The notes under the pieces were generated by a model. It searched no databases. It worked only from the letters and a program-made list of their open reading frames with translations, and was not told the origin of the DNA. The position numbers and the translations under genes were made by a program. Source: an uncultured delta proteobacterium (GTDB lineage Bacteria > Desulfobacterota > Binatia > Bin18). From it: DNA of 28,679 nt. The stretch covers positions 1 to 28,679 of the forward strand of contig CAVTCR010000034.1 in the NCBI GenBank assembly GCA_963733195.1, read 5' to 3'. Within the stretch, counting starts at the first letter, position 1; each line of letters begins with the position of its first letter. Shown here piece by piece: positions 1,750-8,516 of this stretch.

Positions 1750-1842
1750 GCCGAAACGCGCCCGCGCACCGCGAGCCGCCACAACGCGGCCTTTCAGGTT
1801 TAGCAGAACCGCAACGCGGGCAGCGATGCGGTGGCGCGGCTG
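1750..1842 (-). other. attC site of the ~100-bp family, interrupted by IS copy 1; its R'' box lies at 3480-3486
   Basis: CGCGCACCGCGAGC...GCGATGCGGTGGCGCGGCTG joined to GTTAGGC rebuilds the same end as the intact site at 8544-8643. The R' end is slightly degenerate (CCGAAAC). Confidence 0.85.
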
Positions 1843-1926
1843 ATACTCATCCAGGCCTCCTGGGCTGCGAGTGGCAGCGGTAGGATGGCTGTAGCCACAC
1901 AATCCACTCTACCGGAGGACACCTGG

Positions 1927-2971
1927 ATGAATTTTTACACACAACAACATAAACATTATTGTGGGATCGATCTACATGCGCGGGCGATGTACGTCTGTAT
2001 TCTCGATCAGCACGGCACGAAACTCGTCCACAAAAATCTGCCGACGACGCCGGAGGCATTTTTACGTCTCATTGCTCCCTATCGAGAGGATCTGGTCGTC
2101 GGCGTCGAATGTATGTTCACGTGGTATTGGCTGGCGGACCTCTGTCAGTAAGGAAGGGATTGCCTTTGTCCTGGGCCATGCGCTCTATATGAAGGCGATT
2201 CATGGGGGCAAAGCCAAGAACGATAAAATTGATGCGCAGAAGATTGCGGTCTTATTGCGTGGCGGGATGTTGCCCCAAGCGTATGTCTATCCTGCAGAGA
2301 TGCGGGCGACCCGCGACTTACTCCGGCGTCGCTGTCATCTGGCCCGCAAGCGCGCCGAACTGTTAGCCCACATTCACAATACCAAGAGTCAGTACAATCT
2401 GCCGGAGATTGGCAAACGGCTGGCGAACAAAGCGAACCGCGAAGATGTCGCCGACCATTTTCCCGATCCCAGTGTCCGCAAGGCGATCGAAGTCGATGTG
2501 TCGCTCATCGATCACTACGATCAATTGTTGGGCGAGGTGGAACTCTATCTCACGCGCAGTGCCAAAACCGATGATGTCCAGACGTTCGCCCGGTTGCAAT
2601 CGGTTCCCGGGATTGGGCAGATTCTGGCGTTGGTCATTCTCTATGAGATTCAGGACATTCGCGCGCTTTCCGCGCGTGCAAGATTTCGTCTCCTATTGTC
2701 GGCTGGTGAAGTGCGCCAAAGAATCCAACGGCAAACGACTGGGGACTTCAGGCAAAAAGATTGGCAACGTCCATTTACGCTGGGCCTTTGCCGAAGCCGC
2801 GGTCCTCTTTATCCGGCAGAGTCAGCCGGGAAAGAGTATTTTGCGAAACTCGAACACAAACACGGCAAAGCCAAAGCGCTCACCGTGCTCGCCCACAAGT
2901 TGGGCCGGGCCGTGTACTACATGCTCACGCGGGAACACGCGTTTGACCTCAAGCGCTTTGTCACCGCGTAA
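1927..2971 (+). CDS. IS110-family DEDD transposase/recombinase (frameshifts near 2145, 2660 and 2830)
   Basis: YCGIDLH, VGVECMF, KNDKIDA (RuvC-like DEDD domain), SVPGIG and KESNGK...GNVHLRWAFAEAA (C-terminal Tnp domain), spread over three frames. Confidence 0.92.
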
Positions 2972-3450
2972 CCGCTGAGGGGAGAGACCGAGCCCGCCGT
3001 CTAACTGGCCCACCAGAGGGGAGAGCCTGCTCGATGTTTCTTCCTTATATACAGCACGGACTGTGCAGGAACATCTGGACGACAAGCCCCGGAGCCGCAC
3101 GGCTTGATTGGACTGTCTCTCCCGCTCATCTTCTTGGTGATCCGTCACCAAGTGTCCCGTGGCTGCCCCTCCCCCGAGTCTGGCACTAACTAGGAGTGTC
3201 TGCGGACACAACCCGCTGTATTGAGAAGACCGGGATGAGGGCACAGAAGAGTTTCTCGGGCGTGGGGTCTGCGGACGCCACTGTTTCTCCGTGGAACATA
3301 GTCCACGAGAACATCGACCCTCTATAGGTGTTTGGTGCAGCTCACGGGCTGTGACCAGCAACCGAAATGAAGTCAGCCGCAATCGCTTGGCGAAGATGAT
3401 TCACCATATGTTCCTCGGACGGCCACCCCGCCCCCGCGATGCATCCGTCT
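2972..3450 (+). ncRNA. Candidate bridge/seek RNA region of IS copy 1
   Basis: Long non-coding region 3' of the transposase, conserved in copy 2, with hairpins showing compensatory changes. IS1111-type elements encode their guide RNA at this position. Boundaries are unknown. Confidence 0.6.
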
Positions 3451-3456
3451 GCCCGC

Positions 3457-3479
3457 TTGACATCGTCGGCCTGATAGGG
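3457..3479 (+). promoter_or_regulatory. -35 half (TTGACA) of the circle-junction promoter; -10 (GATACT) forms on joining to the IS left end
   Basis: TTGACA at 3457-3462. Circularisation gives TTGACA-N16/17-GATACT. The same geometry is present in copy 2 (7536-7541). Confidence 0.75.
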
Positions 3480-3480
3480 G

Positions 3481-3720
3481 TTAGGCAACGCCTAACATCT
3501 TGTTCGCATAGTCTTTGCCGTACGTGGCAGGAGGCAGGACTTTGTGGCCTTTCTTGTACAAGTCAATCGTCTCGTCCACAATCGCACATAACTCGGCAAA
3601 CACTGCTTGCTCGTCGTCTCCGTGACAGCCTCCATACAGTAGCCCCGGACAACTCCCAACAAAACATTGATCTTCTTCCGACCATTCGACAATCTTGACG
3701 TACCGCGCACTCGCTTTCAT
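3481..3720 (-). CDS. hicB: HicB-family antitoxin
   Basis: RYVKIVEWSEEDQCFVGSCPGL..GGCHGDD pattern, AGGAG RBS, stop codon in the R'' box GCCTAAC, and ATGA overlap with a HicA-like remnant. Confidence 0.75.
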   Translation of the reverse strand: MKASARYVKIVEWSEEDQCFVGSCPGLLYGGCHGDDEQAVFAELCAIVDETIDLYKKGHKVLPPATYGKDYANKMLGVA

Positions 3721-3817
3721 CGTTGGGACTCCTCAATTGCCGCTTGTGCGGCTTTCTCTTGATAATGCTTGACGTCTTTCCCAAGTTTCCCAGAGATCGT
3801 GATGGGTTTGGTACCTT
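3717..3817 (-). pseudogene. 3' half of a HicA-like toxin gene
   Basis: My translation ...GTKPITISGKLGKDVKHYQEKAAQAAIEESQR* resembles HicA C-termini and is coupled to hicB. The 5' half is absent. Confidence 0.6.
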
Positions 3818-3970
3818 GTCTTTTGCGAGCTCGCAGCGGCCAAACACCTGAGAAAAATCGTAGGAGAGAGGACCTTTTGCCTCGAACACCGCACTTTCAA
3901 TGCAGCCAATCAACCTATCGAGTTCACCGGCTTCTATGAGGGCCTCTATGTCTCGGAACTCATCTTTCAT
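3818..3970 (-). pseudogene. N-terminal fragment of an AlbA_2/Schlafen-like domain protein
   Basis: MKDEFRDIEALIEAGE...IESAVFEAKG..Y.....ELAKD stops just before the expected (V/I)xAxAN motif. Confidence 0.55.
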
Positions 3971-4027
3971 ACAGTCAGCAGGCTGGACTAAGGCTCTGAA
4001 GGCGTCAAGACTTGACACCGAAGAGCG

Positions 4028-4112
4028 GGCTAACGCCCGGTGGCTGGCGGCCACACACGCTCGGACAGGGCACGTCACTTCCCCGCCAGTCCACTCCAGC
4101 CGCGTGTTAGCC
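4028..4112 (-). other. attC site (85 bp, different sequence type)
   Basis: GGCTAAC...GTTAGCC perfectly complementary ends with an imperfect internal palindrome. The upstream ORF stop lies within R''. Confidence 0.85.
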
Positions 4113-4427
4113 GGTCAGCTCCCACACCTCACCAGGCCGCAGCTTTTCTAAGGCTGTGCGAAGTGCCGCGACCAAAGGAAGAAGATCGGCCAAACGGTTT
4201 GTTTTCGCCCGAAGTACAACAATCCCGAAAAGTCGGTTCTGCACACGTTGTTGTTTCGGGAGGTTCTTATCGACCGTCACCAAGGCATCAAACAACCCTG
4301 CCATTGCGTTAAGCAGGGGGCCGTCATCTAGGTCTGCCCAGACCATCTCGGGAACAGTGCGCACTTCATGTCCAGGCAGCTCATTAGCGAGCCATCGCGG
4401 CACACAGGTATCGAGCAGGATACGCAT
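4107..4427 (-). CDS. DUF5615-family PIN-like toxin
   Basis: MRILLDTCVP...GHEVRTV...DDGPLL...LVTVDKNL, downstream of a DUF433 gene. Confidence 0.8.
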   Translation of the reverse strand: MRILLDTCVPRWLANELPGHEVRTVPEMVWADLDDGPLLNAMAGLFDALVTVDKNLPKQQRVQNRLFGIVVLRAKTNRLADLLPLVAALRTALEKLRPGEVWELTG

Positions 4428-4445
4428 GTCCGGAGCCGCCCCGGG

Positions 4446-4670
4446 TTACGCCGCGACCGCTTTAGTCAGAAGAGCTGACTTGGCCAACTCCAGAACGGCG
4501 ATGGCGTGTTCACGGGAGACGCTTGGAAAGTCCTTCAGGAACTCGTCTAGGGTATCCCCGGCCTCCAGATAATCGATGAGGGTCTGGACAGGAACTCTCG
4601 TACCAGCAAAGACAGGGGTGCCGCTTAGTCGATATGGAGATGTGGTGATCAAGGGATCGGGGATATGCAT
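4446..4670 (-). CDS. DUF433-family antitoxin
   Basis: SGTPVFAGTRVPVQTLIDYLEAGDTLDEFLKDFPSV signature. Confidence 0.9.
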   Translation of the reverse strand: MHIPDPLITTSPYRLSGTPVFAGTRVPVQTLIDYLEAGDTLDEFLKDFPSVSREHAIAVLELAKSALLTKAVAA

Positions 4671-4728
4671 CCTACTCTCTGTTCGTGGTAGCTGACCTGA
4701 CCCTAACCTAGCACGCTTGCATCTGGCT

Positions 4729-4828
4729 GGCTAACGCTCCCCGCGTACCGCGAGCTGCCCAGACGCGCCCTTTCACATTTATTCCAAACCGCAACCGGGC
4801 AGCGATGCGGTGGCGCGACTAGTTAGCC
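4729..4828 (-). other. attC site (100 bp, intact family member)
   Basis: GGCTAAC...CGCGTACCGCGAGCTGCCC...GGGCAGCGATGCGGTGGCGCGACTAGTTAGCC, immediately after the brnA stop. Confidence 0.9.
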
Positions 4829-4829
4829 C

Positions 4830-5081
4830 TTAACCTTGCATGGCAAGTTCCTCGCGGACAATGCGCCGCACGATTTCAGGAGTCAACGGCTGTTCTCTCC
4901 GTCCGACAGAGGTACTCAACACCTCGTTGATGAGCGTCTGATAACCACGGCCAGTTTTCTCTGAGAGAGCACGAAAATGCTCAAGCACCTCATTATCAAG
5001 ATACAACGTGATGCGGGTTTTGCCGGTCATGGGCAACACTGCGCCACGTTTGGCTTTGGAAAAGTCATACTCCTTTTTCAT
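4830..5081 (-). CDS. brnA: BrnA-family antitoxin
   Basis: MKKEYDFSKAKRG...KTRITLYLDNEVLEHFR...GYQTLINEVL. Confidence 0.88.
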   Translation of the reverse strand: MKKEYDFSKAKRGAVLPMTGKTRITLYLDNEVLEHFRALSEKTGRGYQTLINEVLSTSVGRREQPLTPEIVRRIVREELAMQG

Positions 5082-5337
5082 AAGCTCGTCTCTCTTTGGG
5101 TTCTGCGTGTCGCACCGAAATCAACCGAGTGTCCTCGCCTTCATACGTGTAGACGACGACCATTAACCGACCAAACGTGTTCATACCGATCGAAACAAAT
5201 CGCTGTTCGCCTCGTGCTGAGTCGTCCTCAATCGTGAGAGCTAAGGGGTCATTGAGGACGCCATCACCCTCGGCGAGCGACACGCCATGTTTCCGTATGT
5301 TAATAGCGTTCTTCCTGGGATCGAAGTTGCTCTCCAC
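5065..5337 (-). CDS. brnT: BrnT-family ribonuclease toxin
   Basis: FDPRKNAINIRKHGVSL...GEQRFVSIG...VVVYT...RLISVR; overlaps brnA. Confidence 0.9.
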   Translation of the reverse strand: MESNFDPRKNAINIRKHGVSLAEGDGVLNDPLALTIEDDSARGEQRFVSIGMNTFGRLMVVVYTYEGEDTRLISVRHAEPKERRAYEKGV

Positions 5338-5343
5338 CGGGTC

Positions 5344-5371
5344 AGTGTATGTATATTATACATATTTGCAA
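5344..5371 (-). promoter_or_regulatory. brnTA cassette promoter with palindromic operator
   Basis: Minus strand TTGCAA-N16-TACACT, 6 nt before the GTG start. The spacer holds a perfect inverted repeat ATGTATA-N-TATACAT (5349-5363). Confidence 0.65.
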
Positions 5372-5397
5372 TCATGGTGTGTGTCTCACTGATAAGA

Positions 5398-5464
5398 GAG
5401 CTATTGTCCGTGTTGAGCGGCGCACCGCTTTTTAGCATGCCCGTTCTCGAACGCTCTGTTAGGC
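5398..5464 (-). other. attC site with a degenerate R' box
   Basis: R'' GCCTAAC (5458-5464) overlaps a stop codon; arms TTGAGCGG/CCGTTCTCGAA. The far end reads GCTATTG instead of GCTAACG. Confidence 0.65.
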
Positions 5465-5824
5465 CTTTCTGTAGATCTTGAGTGCGCGGAGCACATCCAA
5501 AGACTTGGATAGCTTTTTAAGCGATTTTGCCGCGGCAGTGGATTGCTTCAAGTATCCTTCAGCGTTCTGCTTCAGTTCCCCAAGGGCATCTCTCAGCTCC
5601 ACCAGTTCTTCGACGAACTCTTCGTTTAATTCGGCAGTAAGGAACTGGTGGTCACACGACTGGCAGACGCGACCGCGTCTAAACCAGTTGATATCTTTGT
5701 GATCAGTGCGGTGCCAACGTTGCCCAGACCGTCCCGCAATAGAATGAGGATTAATGCCCTTGCATACAGTAATTGAGTGGCATTCCGGACACCAGACCTG
5801 GGTTCCTCCTTATTGAACGCGCAT
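5459..5824 (-). CDS. Zinc-ribbon plus coiled-coil hypothetical cassette protein (absent from the ORF track; TAA at codon 5)
   Basis: AGGAG RBS, then ATG CGC GTT CAA TAA followed by an open frame GGTQVWCPECHS...WFRRGRVCQSCDHQFLTAE...IYRKA* ending in R''. Confidence 0.65.
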
Positions 5825-5839
5825 GATGTCTCCTTGAAG

Positions 5840-5930
5840 GGCTAACGGCCCGCGCACCGCGAGCTGCCTACTTGCGGTCTTGCAGATTTAGCAGAATCGC
5901 AACGTGGCAGCGATGCGGTGGCACGGCGTG
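5840..5930 (-). other. attC site of the ~100-bp family, interrupted by IS copy 2; its R'' box lies at 7559-7565
   Basis: GGCTAAC-GGCC-CGCGCACCGCGAGCTGCC...GGCAGCGATGCGGTGGCACGGCGTG, then the IS, then GTTAGAC. Confidence 0.88.
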
Positions 5931-6014
5931 ATACTCCTCCAGGCCTCCTGTGCCGCGAGTGGCAGCGGTAGGAGGGCTGTACACAAATATCCACGCCACA
6001 AGGAGGAGACCTGG

Positions 6015-7091
6015 ATGAATTTTTACACGCAACAACATAAACATTCTTGTGGCATCGATCTACCTGCGCGGGCGATGTATGTCTGTATTCTCGATCAACA
6101 GGGTACGAAACTCGTCCATAAAAATTTGCCGACGACTCCTGAAGCGTTTTTGCGGGTGATTGCTCCATATAGAGAGGATCTCGTCGTCGGCGTCGAATGT
6201 ATGTTTACCTGGTATTGGCTCGCGGACCTCTGTAGTAAGGAAGGAATTGCCTTTGTCCTGGGACATGCGCTTTATATGAAGGCGATTCATGGCGGCAAAG
6301 CGAAGAACGATAAAATTGATGCCCAGAAGATTGCGGTCTTGTTACGGGGTGGAATGATGCCCCAAGCGTACGTTTATCCCGTCGAGATGCGGGCCACCCG
6401 CGATTTACTCCGCCGGCGCTGTCATCTCGCGCGGAAGCGGGCCGAACTCTTAGCGCACATCCATAATACGAATAGTCAGTACAACCTGCCCGAGATTGGG
6501 AAGCGGCTGGCGAACAAAGCCAACCGTGACGATGTCGCCGACCATTGCCCCGATCCCAGTGTCCGCAAGACCATTGAAGTCGAGGTGTCGCTCATCGATC
6601 ACTATGATGAACTCTTGGGCGAGGTCGAACTCTATCTCACGCGCAGTGCCAAAACGCACGATGTCCAGACATTCGCCCGTTTACAATCGGTCCCTGGGAT
6701 CGGGCAGATTCTGGCGTTGGTCCTGCTCTCTGAGATTCAGGACATCGCCCGGTTTCCCCGGGTGCAAGATTTCGTCTCCTATTGTCGGCTGGTGAAGAGT
6801 GCCAAAGAGTCAGGCGGCAAACGGCTAGGAACGTCCGGCAAAAAGATCGGCACCGTCCATCTCCGCTGGGCGTTTGCCGCAGCCGCCGTGCTCTTCATCC
6901 GCCAGAGTCAGCCGGGGAAAGCGTATTTTGCCACACTCGAACACCAACACGGCAAAGCCAAGGCCCTAACCGTGCTTGCTCATAAGTTGGGCCGGGCCGT
7001 GTATTACCTGCTCACGCGGGAACACGCGTTTGATCTTCAGCGCTTTGTCACCGCGTACCCGCTGAGGAGAGAGACCGAGCCCACCGTCTAA
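6015..7091 (+). CDS. IS110-family DEDD transposase/recombinase
   Basis: Uninterrupted frame from MNFYTQQHKH with AGGAGG RBS and DEDD motifs. The TAA of copy 1 is TAC here, extending the protein by 11 residues. Confidence 0.95.
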   Translation: MNFYTQQHKHSCGIDLPARAMYVCILDQQGTKLVHKNLPTTPEAFLRVIAPYREDLVVGVECMFTWYWLADLCSKEGIAFVLGHALYMKAIHGGKAKNDKIDAQKIAVLLRGGMMPQAYVYPVEMRATRDLLRRRCHLARKRAELLAHIHNTNSQYNLPEIGKRLANKANRDDVADHCPDPSVRKTIEVEVSLIDHYDELLGEVELYLTRSAKTHDVQTFARLQSVPGIGQILALVLLSEIQDIARFPRVQDFVSYCRLVKSAKESGGKRLGTSGKKIGTVHLRWAFAAAAVLFIRQSQPGKAYFATLEHQHGKAKALTVLAHKLGRAVYYLLTREHAFDLQRFVTAYPLRRETEPTV

Positions 7092-7530
7092 CGGGCGCAT
7101 GTAGGGCTGAGCCTTTTACGCACTCCTTCCTTATATACAGCTCCGACTGTGAGGGGGTCGCTGGACGACACGCCCGAAGCCGCACGTGTTGATGGGACTG
7201 TCTCTCTCGCTCATCTCCTTGGTGATCCGTCCCCAAGTGCATAGTGGCTGCTCCTCCGCCGAGTCTGAAACTAACTAGGAGTGTCTCACGACACAATCCG
7301 CTACTATTGAGAAGACCGGGACGAGGGCACACAAGAGTTTCTCGGGCGTGGCCTCTGCGGAGGCTACTATTCTCCACACAACGTGAGAGAATATCGACCC
7401 TCCATAGGTGTTTGGTGCAGCAACAGGCTGTGACCAGCAACGGAAATCAAGTCGGCCACAAACGCTTAGGAAAGATGACTCATCAAATGTTCTTCGGACG
7501 GTCACCCCGCCCCCGCGATGCATCCGTCTG
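7059..7530 (+). ncRNA. Candidate bridge/seek RNA region of IS copy 2
   Basis: Homologous to 2972-3450; stems are conserved while loops vary. Confidence 0.6.
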
Positions 7531-7566
7531 CCCTCTTGACAATGTCGGCCTGATAGGGGTTAGACC

Positions 7567-8516
7567 TCAAACTCCTTCGAGTACCCGTTTTAATTTTGGA
7601 GAGACATTGTTAAAGGGAGATTCCGTCGCTTAATGTCTTACGAAGCTTCAAATACCCCTGGTTCTCAAGAACGTGCAAGGCATGATCCACTAAGATTTGT
7701 TGGGCTCCGACATTCTCGGTTATAGACACACTGTCTTGTAGGTTCTCGTTGACGATTTTCGCGATAACGTTGGTGAGAAGCTCCTTATAACTTGCGACGT
7801 AGTTATTCACATAGCGGTCAAATCCAAAAAGGGAAACAGTTAGGCTAGGAGGGAGATCCACCGATGACTCCAAGTAATTCGATATAGCCCTCGTGCTCGA
7901 AGCACTTCGAATGAATCTCTCATTCCTGTTCTGATAAACCAAAGGTGGCGGTTTGAGATAAAACCTGGTCTGTGTCGATAAACATCTGACCCTGTTCTAA
8001 TTGCGATCTCACATGCAACCTTCAGGACAAGGTTGTCAACTTTGGCGAGTTGATCGATCGTGATGATACTCGATTTTGACGTAAGCAGGAGAGACATCGA
8101 GAGGCTGTTTTTCTCGGTGCCCGTAGATAGACATTACAATCCTATCGAACTCTTAGCGTCGCATATTGTTCGAGGGTCGTGGATTCGTTCCCATAGTATG
8201 GTTTTCAAACATTCCGGGATGTTGCATTCCTCGAATTACGATCGGAATCAATTTTGTTGCCTGCTCGATTTTCTTGACCATCGCAGCATCGAGTTCTTCA
8301 AACCTAAGGTTTGTTAACCTATTGTGACACGATCCAATTATACGGCGTTCGCCTCTTAAGACCATCCTCTTTAAAAGATCTTACGCACAAGGCTATCAAC
8401 AAGTGGCATTCCCATAGGTTAGTGAAAAGCACGAAATGTTTCTCCCGTCAATGTTTGGAAAAGCTAAGAAAAAGGGTTCTTGTTTCATCGCATGACTCAA
8501 ATACTTTGGGATTCAT
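7567..8516 (-). pseudogene. TIR-domain protein cassette, heavily frameshifted
   Basis: Pieces across frames: MNPKVF.SH, WE, SLVRKIF, EELDAAMVKKIEQATKLIPIVI, IVMSIYGHREK, then a C-terminal region ending ...KLKRVLEGV*. These match the TIR_2 family pattern. Confidence 0.75.

Follow-up and report, generated by a model that had tools for sequence, protein, structure and literature searches.

The question raised by this locus is what a structured, non-coding stretch at positions 2972–3450 of contig CAVTCR010000034.1 (assembly GCA_963733195.1, from an uncultured delta proteobacterium) might do. The contig was analysed over positions 1–28,679, and this whole stretch of 28,679 nt is called the window below. 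A sequence-only reading had suggested that the region contains covarying stems and a duplicated loop module. Our analysis indicated that it is likely to be the right non-coding end of an IS1111-like insertion sequence (IS; IS110 family, DEDD/serine), and that this end encodes a guide RNA of ∼400 nt, of the bridge RNA or seekRNA kind, for an integron attC target and for the element's own end. The rough probability of this reading, with its two parts taken jointly, was put at 0.8. The bridge RNA of IS621 is 177 nt long. Because the present fold is about twice as long as the characterised guides, contains a duplicated loop scaffold and has a separate donor guide in a multiloop, it would very probably represent a large variant of the RNA-guided system described in 2024.

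The window carries two copies of one IS, which are 91% identical across their alignment:

1842–3482, plus strand: IS copy 1, 1641 bp with one copy of the TT core counted, limits from the alignment of the copies and from the flanks
5930–7561, plus strand: IS copy 2, 1632 bp, recombinase gene intact (6015–7091)

The left end of the element begins with GATACTCATCC, and the right end of copy 1 closes with CCTGATAGGGGTT (also given as GGCCTGATAGGGGTT). The product of the copy 2 gene was assigned to the IS110-family RNA-guided transposases (NCBIfam NF033542, 204 bits against a cut-off of 140). It contains the Pfam domains DEDD_Tnp_IS110 and Transposase_20, and its C-terminal (Tnp) domain shows a relationship to the structurally solved transposases of IS621 and ISCro4 (E 1e-7). 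The non-coding end extends over 2972–3482 in copy 1 (∼510 nt) and over 7092–7561 in copy 2 (∼470 nt). The structured part of copy 1, 2976–3378, lies within 2972–3450, while the element itself ends at 3482; by alignment, the counterpart of 2972–3450 in copy 2 is 7059–7561, where the reading frame stops at 7091. The left leader measures 85 nt and the 3′ region is much longer, as in the IS1111 group, and the subterminal inverted repeats (left ATCCAGGCC, right GGCCTGAT) co-vary across the family. Elements of the IS1111 type have been described as having subterminal inverted repeats, a long non-coding 3′ region and a guide downstream of tnp (PMC11187229, in the part available).

The region has a conserved secondary structure with internal loops, as demonstrated by covariation. 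The element's own genome contains six full copies, 78–100% identical to copy 2, and seven loci of other genomes match the whole 3′ region at 75–80%. These 13 homologous 3′ regions (six and seven, respectively) were aligned with a mean column identity of 84%, and a curated structure of 94 pairs was compared with 500 shuffles and six slid controls. In the 13 sequences, 96.7% of the cells were paired. Changes on both sides were found in 18 of the 94 pairs, compared with 7.4 ± 1.6 pairs in the shuffles (0/500 reached 18) and with 2–5 pairs in the slid controls, so that the covariation expected from the sequence-only reading was present above chance. RNAalifold on the same sequences predicted 122 pairs, and in 18 of these both sides had changed. 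The individual pairings noticed in that reading were recovered as well. The segment GGGAGAGAC (2980–2988), read directly, is the reverse complement of GTCTCTCCC (3115–3123), and in copy 2 GAGAGAGAC (7067–7075) pairs with GTCTCTCTC (7200–7208), with G-C replaced by A-U at one pair (columns 10/156). The stem of GTGTC-TGCG-GACAC in copy 1 is kept in GTGTC-TCAC-GACAC of copy 2 (columns 230–243). The hairpin at 3262–3281 (GTGGGGTC TGCG GACGCCAC) shows the reported G-C to C-G swap relative to 7348–7367 (GTGGCCTC TGCG GAGGCTAC) at columns 304/315, and in copy 1 a G.G mismatch adjoins the swapped pair. Both modules, here numbered 1 and 2, contain CCGAGYC-n6-CTAAC ... CCGC-n4/5-TTGA-n3-GAC, and a closing stem is present in each. 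A protein-coding reading of the 3′ region was rejected, because 25 of 26 distinct gap runs were not multiples of three, stops were present in all six frames in 12 of the 13 sequences (L004 retains one open reverse frame), and the five overlapping open reading frames (ORFs) gave no Pfam family at E ≤ 0.1.

The family was followed further in a collection of species-representative genomes, in which 367 stretches encode relatives of the recombinase. The best 80 of these 367 were kept; they show 59–91% amino-acid identity, come from many phyla and are nearly all from metagenome-assembled genomes. The family elements are 1610–1670 bp long and share the same ends, and 72 distinct 3′ regions exhibited the same blocks in the same order: module 1; module 2 some 185–205 nt further on; GTTTCTAGG; CCTC-N-ATANGNGTT-TGGTGCAG; GAAAYNAAGTCRG; TTGACA; and the right end GGCCTTATAAGTGTT, then mostly AGGC. 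Judging from these alignments, the architecture is kept among relatives from many phyla whose recombinases are 59–91% identical. In a plasmid collection, 987 of 988 matching records were below 60% identity; among the plasmid matches listed, one record reached 65.6% and the remainder were ≤28.6% identical, and no characterised relative in that collection was close enough for a comparison of the non-coding region.

The flanks of the element point to the target. Integron attC sites have the inverse core RYYYAAC and the core GTTRRRY. The left flank of the element ends with (G)TT, sometimes GT or CT, and the right flank begins with AGRC; together, the flanks are the two parts of an imperfect palindrome of ∼100 nt bounded by GGCTAAC and GTTAGCC. 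Both copies in the window sit directly after the GTT of an integron attC-like site, and an unoccupied site was also found:

4726–4831, plus strand: unoccupied attC-like site, GGCTAAC ... GGTGGCGCGACTA-GTTAGCC, the same repeat as in the left flanks of both copies

This site folds as an imperfect hairpin with paired ends (z of −2.86), and GTTAGVC is over-represented in the window (17 against 7.0 ± 2.6 expected). By its flanks, the element appears to insert directly after the core GTT, with TT as the shared core dinucleotide.

The letters of these flanks recur in module 1, for which three features were delineated:

2976–3128 (7063–7213 in copy 2), plus strand: module 1, with the closing stem 2976–2990 paired to 3113–3128, an internal loop and the distal arm 3010–3093
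2997–3006 (7084–7093 in copy 2), plus strand: 5′ loop strand CCGTCTAACT, in which GTCTAAC complements the top strand G-TT-AGAC or G-TT-AGGC of the right junction
3097–3108 (7182–7193 in copy 2), plus strand: 3′ loop strand GCACGGCTTGAT, of the same sense as the left flank followed by TT and GAT

The closing stem had four pairs with changes on both sides in the 13 sequences, and across the family it keeps 10–14 pairs with unrelated sequences. The cognate duplex had an energy of −18.96 kcal/mol, compared with −11.86 ± 0.60 kcal/mol when partners were shuffled (38 distinct pairs, a few mis-extracted rows included; 0/300 shuffles reached the cognate value). In the internal loop, the 5′ strand G[C/U]CUAAC is the complement of G-TT-AGRC; it matches the flank of copy 2, GTTAGAC (7559–7565), at 7/7 letters and that of copy 1, GTTAGGC (3480–3486), at 6/7. 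The 3′ strand consists, in this order, of variable letters, UU and GAU, and GAT represents the first three letters of the left end. The left junction of copy 1 is GCGCGGCT/GATAC at 1834–1846 (here and below, a slash within a site marks the junction), and in L021 (GCGGTTGA) and L014 (CGCCGTGAT) the 3′ strand matches its own junction over 8–9 letters. For 29 distinct guide/flank pairs, the contiguous run shared with the cognate left flank was 2.9 letters, compared with 2.12 ± 0.14 in permutations (0/5000 reached it); the comparison in a fixed register was weaker (2.59 vs 1.94 of 7; 20/5000 reached it). The top-strand match lies 5′ of the bottom-strand match, which is the order described for IS1111 seekRNAs (PMC11187229, in the part available).

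The strongest evidence for a target loop is the natural retargeting of module 1 in three lineages. In L024/L025, which are flanked by TAAAGC/.../GTTATAA, module 1 carries UCUAAAGC-GAU and UUAUAAC. In L058 the right flank is GTT/GTGC and the module 1 loop GCACAAC, and in L086 the right flank GTT/GGGCG is accompanied by CCCAAC. From these matches, module 1 appears to be the target-binding loop. The proposal of a two-loop guide of the bridge or seek type was thus upheld by the IS110-family transposase upstream, by the subterminal repeats and by a module 1 that matches both target strands. It was also observed that the site of L024/L025, which belong to another genome, is the non-attC sequence TTAAAGC/GTTATAA with GC instead of TT as the junction dinucleotide, and that the crossover appears to be shifted by three letters into the right end of other lineages.

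The sequence-only reading had further suggested extra domains. These are present, and the clearest donor-matching segment is located in one of them rather than in the second loop:

3251–3368 (7337–7447 in copy 2), plus strand: multiloop, with GTTTC 3251–3255 paired to GAAAT 3364–3368, GGG 3258–3260 paired to CCC 3318–3320, and the hairpins 3262–3281 and 3282–3313
3324–3332 (7404–7412 in copy 2), plus strand: candidate left-donor guide ATAGGTGTT, a same-sense counterpart of the final 9 nt of the right end, ATAGGGGTT (3474–3482, 7553–7561)
3334–3356 (7414–7435 in copy 2), plus strand: most conserved hairpin, GGTGCAGC...GCTGTGACC, the sole non-coding part that BLAST detects in distant relatives

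The candidate guide was compared with the closing 9 nt of the right end in 42 loci, with L050 and L093 left out because their right ends were not found convincingly. The two were identical at 9/9 positions in 31 loci and at 8/9 in the other 11. For the eight distinct types of guide/end pair, the mean identity was 8.5, compared with 7.32 ± 0.28 after permutation (0/5000 reached it). Guide and right end changed together in six variant forms (AAGTG, AGGTG, AGATG, AGGCG, AAGGG, and ATA to AGA in L015), and for this reason the segment is read as a donor guide. When the whole 3′ region was searched for 7-mers of the donor junction, the multiloop segment alone recurred. It is single-stranded between the NGG/CCN helix and the conserved hairpin, inside the GUUUC/GAAAY helix. 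The latter is conserved and hardly varies, the NGG/CCN helix shows compensated changes in L051 and L067, and the hairpins 3262–3281 and 3282–3313 had three pairs each with changes on both sides in the 13 sequences. In the family alignment, the stem letters of the conserved hairpin vary while complementarity is kept. Three further candidates for donor matching were set aside. A programmable UGG extension 3′ of the guide was dropped, as UGG does not vary and falls within the hairpin that follows; TGATACT, a same-sense match to the left end, was seen in module 2 of the L064/L068/L081 clade and is not general; and GGATGAG, complementary to the left end in three copies, belongs to a stem.

Module 2 was found in the same domain as this candidate guide:

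3161–3378 (7246–7457 in copy 2), plus strand: second domain, with the helix GGCTG 3161–3165/CAGCC 3374–3378 enclosing module 2 and the multiloop
3167–3241 (7252–7327 in copy 2), plus strand: module 2, with an outer stem, a proximal stem, the loop GGCACTAACTA (3182–3192)/GCTGTATTGAGA (3215–3226) and the distal GTGTC hairpin

The long-range helix covaries (GGCUG with CAGCC, GUUCUG with CAGAAC, GCUCUG with CAGAGC), and its cognate energy was −11.65 kcal/mol, compared with −8.58 ± 0.47 kcal/mol in shuffles (31 distinct pairs; 0/200 reached it). Since this helix surrounds the multiloop as well as module 2, the donor guide shares one domain with module 2. In 33 family sequences, 99.4% of the cells over the 11 pairs of the module 2 stems were paired, and 35 cells were changed on both sides, compared with 11.5 ± 2.6 in shuffles (0/500 reached it); the number of pairs with changes on both sides was not significant (four pairs, reached by 56/500 shuffles). 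When the sequences were folded independently, CUAAC and UUGA were unpaired under a strict rule in 16 of the 33, and most of the others had a similar layout by eye. Module 2 is a conserved paralogue of the module 1 loop scaffold. Its near-invariant unpaired letters, N-U-AAC and UU-GA, are the crossover letters, while the remaining letters of its loop differ even among close copies. The idea that these variable letters point to a second target was rejected, since the genome search gave only scattered matches at ≤2 mismatches, and by eye no match of them to the other attC arm was seen.

Two views of module 2 have to be weighed. In the first, module 2 may hold the donor crossover region, with the multiloop segment giving specificity. 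In the second, it is a second target-type or junction-reading loop for excision or for a second attC contact, and the multiloop alone gives donor specificity; CUAAC would then read G-TT-AG of the right junction or target, and UUGA would read TT-GA of the left junction. The 5′ pentamer of module 2 is indeed that of module 1 (CUAAC) in most of the family, and in L058, where the right flank begins with GT, both loops have changed to ACAAC. The two loops do not always move together, however: in L086 module 1 became CCCAAC and module 2 stayed CUAAC, and in the clade of L023, L060, L062 and L075 module 2 carries GUAAC or GCAAC where module 1 carries CUAAC or CUGAC. In favour of the second view, module 2 of L024/L025 keeps AAC though the donor junction, as the ends are read here, has no GTT, and this AAC can therefore pair only with the target side. 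Against the second view, the variable letters of module 2 do not track the flanks, and the sites they imply are not enriched (12–47 genome matches per 14-mer at ≤2 mismatches, none at a repeated site). For ISEc11, a short single-loop seekRNA suffices and the donor must have target-sequence flanks (PMC11187229, in the part available), which would agree with a junction reader; the shared enclosed domain of module 2 and the donor guide would agree better with the donor-crossover view. The junction- or target-reader view is held tentatively, and it is nearly as likely as the donor-crossover reading. A more elaborate proposal, which we consider rather doubtful, is a three-part guide RNA with a target loop, a duplicated loop reading only the junction crossover letters (G-TT-AG, TT-GA) for excision or synapsis, and a separate donor guide in the multiloop. 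If it were true, IS1111-type elements would split donor recognition between two RNA modules, and the extra loop, as a natural reader of junctions, could account for the recognition of integrated copies in excision.

For the guide RNA reading as a whole, the following course would be expected. The RNA would be transcribed with or after the recombinase mRNA and would be bound by the recombinase. The 5′ strand of module 1, G[C/U]CUAAC, would pair with the top strand G-TT-AGRC of the attC core, and its 3′ strand (left flank-UU-GAU) with the bottom strand across the left half of the target and the TT core, extending three letters into the left end of the element. In the multiloop, AUAGGUGUU is a copy of the final seven right-end letters plus the TT core; it can therefore pair with the left half of the donor, on the bottom strand, as it presumably would. 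The left donor half is matched by this guide, and for the right donor half (GATACT...) UU-GA(U) was the sole match found. One RNA would in this way tell the recombinase which two DNAs to join, and the outcome would be insertion directly after the attC GTT.

Several observations weigh against the guide RNA reading. The folding energies of single sequences were ordinary, with z of −1.66 for copy 1 and −0.76 for copy 2; the case rests on covariation and not on stability, because these energies are unremarkable. Rfam gave no family at gathering scores in the whole window, and none even at E ≤ 10 over 7040–7570. On average, the match of module 1 to the left flank is weak and exceeds the core by about one letter; its identity over 8 letters was 4.59 compared with 4.15 in permutations (12/5000 reached it). 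For the right flank, cognate pairs (3.46 of 7) and non-cognate pairs (3.18 of 7) were not separated, because the attC core is common to all copies. In the multiloop, the guide has U where the right end has G in both window copies and in seven other loci, which means one U.C mismatch on the bottom strand. There was also some circularity, as resemblance to the guide, within a span of 130 nt, was partly used to locate the right end; this is offset because the GGCCT repeat, the upstream TTGACA and the breaks of homology between copies fix the position of that end independently. Across the whole 3′ region, the search for donor-junction 7-mers gave no segment that consistently reads the right donor half, and the variable letters of module 2 match nothing found in the flanks, the ends or the genome. 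No expression or binding data were found, and public RNA data listed no element-bearing set. In one run labelled metatranscriptomic, which is probably DNA, there were pieces only over 5999–6346 (gene and leader, not the 3′ region); from this run and from two DNA runs, nothing but contig fragments of relatives was obtained.

Another alternative concerns the multiloop segment itself. ATAGGTGTT could be an internal copy of the right end acting at the DNA level, either as a second recombination site or as a relic of duplication, like the alternative ends of ISPpu9. The segment has the sense of the right end, and ISPpu9 gives several circle forms (PMC12288879; PMC13626964, in the parts available), but among the loci whose right part was read none ends at this segment followed by the attC core. 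Recombination at internal GTT sites is suggested by L064, inserted at GTT/TCTAGG in another copy, by L063, cut at that place, and by L010, with a deletion between ...ATGTT and ...GGGGTT; yet ATAGGTGTT is single-stranded between two helices of the covarying fold, and a relic would not keep co-changing with the right end in six variant forms. This explanation was regarded as improbable, and the segment is retained as the donor guide of the proposed RNA. That the region is instead a structured 3′ untranslated or regulatory RNA (involved in stability or attenuation, or serving as an antisense target) that does not act as a guide, its flank matches reflecting the shared attC core, would fit the lack of cognate separation at the right flank and the lack of expression or binding data found, but is highly improbable, since lineages with other flanks have both module 1 strands retargeted, the multiloop segment changes in step with the right end, and the same arrangement is a proven guide in IS1111-family elements (PMC11187229, in the part available).

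The closest known systems are the seekRNAs of ISEc11, ISPa11, ISKpn4 and ISPst6 (Siddiquee et al. 2024, PMC11187229, in the part available), with which the present element shares, by their description, the DEDD recombinase, the subterminal repeats, the long 3′ region and the strand order. The fold of the present region is ∼400 nt long (copy 1, 403 nt; copy 2, 395 nt; spanning the first stem to the long-range helix), and module 1 alone measures ∼150 nt. The expectation that the region would exceed characterised guides was therefore correct: the characterised IS1111 seekRNAs are 82–96 nt in the short form and 148–172 nt in the long form (Table 1 of PMC13604230). In the available part of PMC11187229, the long form is given as 145–170 nt with a role described as unknown, and the short form contains target matches only. 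Like the present element, ISKpn4 and ISPst6 land in attC. According to Table 1 of PMC13604230 they insert at AA/CG, ∼11 nt before GTTAG; this position of the IS1111-attC group (ISKpn4, ISPst6, ISPa25) differs from that of the present element, which sits directly after GTT.

With the bridge RNA of IS621 and ISCro4 (Durrant et al. 2024, PMC11208160; Hiraizumi et al., PMC13626964, in the parts available), the proposed guide has in common a single RNA with target and donor segments, two paralogous internal loops, and guides that read both strands around a 2-nt core. The UU-GAU guide running past the core into the partner DNA resembles the handshake guides of these systems. In contrast, the IS621 RNA lies upstream of its gene and the present one downstream, the strand matches have the opposite order and polarity, the core is TT rather than CT, and the left-donor guide lies in a multiloop outside the second loop. 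A donor guide at such a place has been predicted for many IS1111 orthologues (Durrant et al. 2024, PMC11208160, in the part available). ISPpu9 with Ssr9 (PMC12288879, in the part available) is also of the IS110 family; its RNA gene likewise lies downstream of the recombinase gene, and different combinations of its end-like sequences recombine. It targets REP sequences, whereas the present element targets attC. A literature search on bridge RNA with attC and on multi-loop donor binding in IS1111 elements returned only the Durrant paper and its preprint, while the supplements of PMC11187229 and PMC11208160 may show similar multiloop guides.

These comparisons bear on several questions. Recombinases of the IS110/IS1111 type are under development as genome-editing tools, and the guide RNA proposed here would be about two times the size of characterised ones. 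There is as yet no settled account of how elements of the IS1111 type recognise their own ends (PMC11187229, in the part available). Members of the clade occur widely in soil and groundwater bacteria from many phyla and form a natural data set for the co-change of target guides, donor guide and the DNA that these read. The element would also represent a second, independent way for this IS family to home to integron cassette sites, at the core GTT, which matters because it bears on how cassette arrays are disrupted.

Two parts of the region complete the map of the element:

3133–3152 (7218–7237 in copy 2), plus strand: linker hairpin CTTGGTGA-TCCG-TCACCAAG, between the domains, with 94.2% of cells paired
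3379–3482 (7458–7561 in copy 2), plus strand: tail and right end, with TTGACA, the subterminal repeat GGCCTGAT, then AGGGGTT

The linker hairpin had no pairs with changes on both sides in the 13 sequences. RNAalifold paired the linker stretch with the tail instead, likewise with no changes on both sides. In the tail, TTGACA (3457–3462, 7536–7541) is perfect, lies 20 nt from the element end and is conserved family-wide. Joined ends put it 20–21 nt from GATACT, and no junction promoter is claimed because this spacing exceeds that of a standard sigma-70 promoter. A scan of the linear copy gave no sigma-70-like promoter and one terminator-like site, which is within the gene and represents fewer than in shuffles.

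Among the short genes between the attC-like sites of the window are BrnT (5065–5337), BrnA (4830–5081) and a DUF433 protein (4446–4670), all on the minus strand. Sites were noted at ∼4028–4112 and ∼4729–4828, and further GTTAGGC cores at 5458–5464 and 7839–7845. On the attC consensus given above, we take these sites and short genes (window 3480–7900) to be an integron cassette array. No integrase was found among the window ORFs scanned.

In copy 1 the recombinase gene is broken, with tblastn pieces at 1927–2145 and 2147–3001. A stop at ∼2149 follows a one-base insertion relative to copy 2, and more one-base differences were seen at ∼2668 and ∼2837. The fold of the 3′ region is kept in this copy although the gene (1927–3001) is broken.

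Locus L018, from another genome, showed, by eye, many A-to-C and T-to-G differences along the whole 3′ alignment, with all four loop strands included. Its parallel A-to-C loop changes were discounted as loop evidence because such changes run all along L018; they may be due to sequencing error in a low-coverage contig or to mutational bias. On two soil/rhizosphere DNA runs (X1 and X4), 5930–7561 gave ∼360–370 contig pieces each at ≥85% likeness in a search with no controls. As these pieces lie along the whole element, relatives of the family seem to be common in those runs.

The own genome also contains five solo right-end tails (L007–L011, on C56, C47, C5, C73 and C16), all ending with GTT/AGRC. 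The tail of L007 begins within the conserved hairpin, and that of L009 is fused to an attC arm. L010 is without the stretch between the internal ...ATGTT and the terminal ...GGGGTT, as if a deletion had occurred between two GTT sites. In L064, from another genome, a partial second copy follows, starting at GTT/TCTAGG inside the 3′ region just past module 2, and L063 is truncated at the same place, ∼280 nt after the gene. The conserved sequence there, GAGTT/TCTMGG, resembles a pseudo-target of the element itself.

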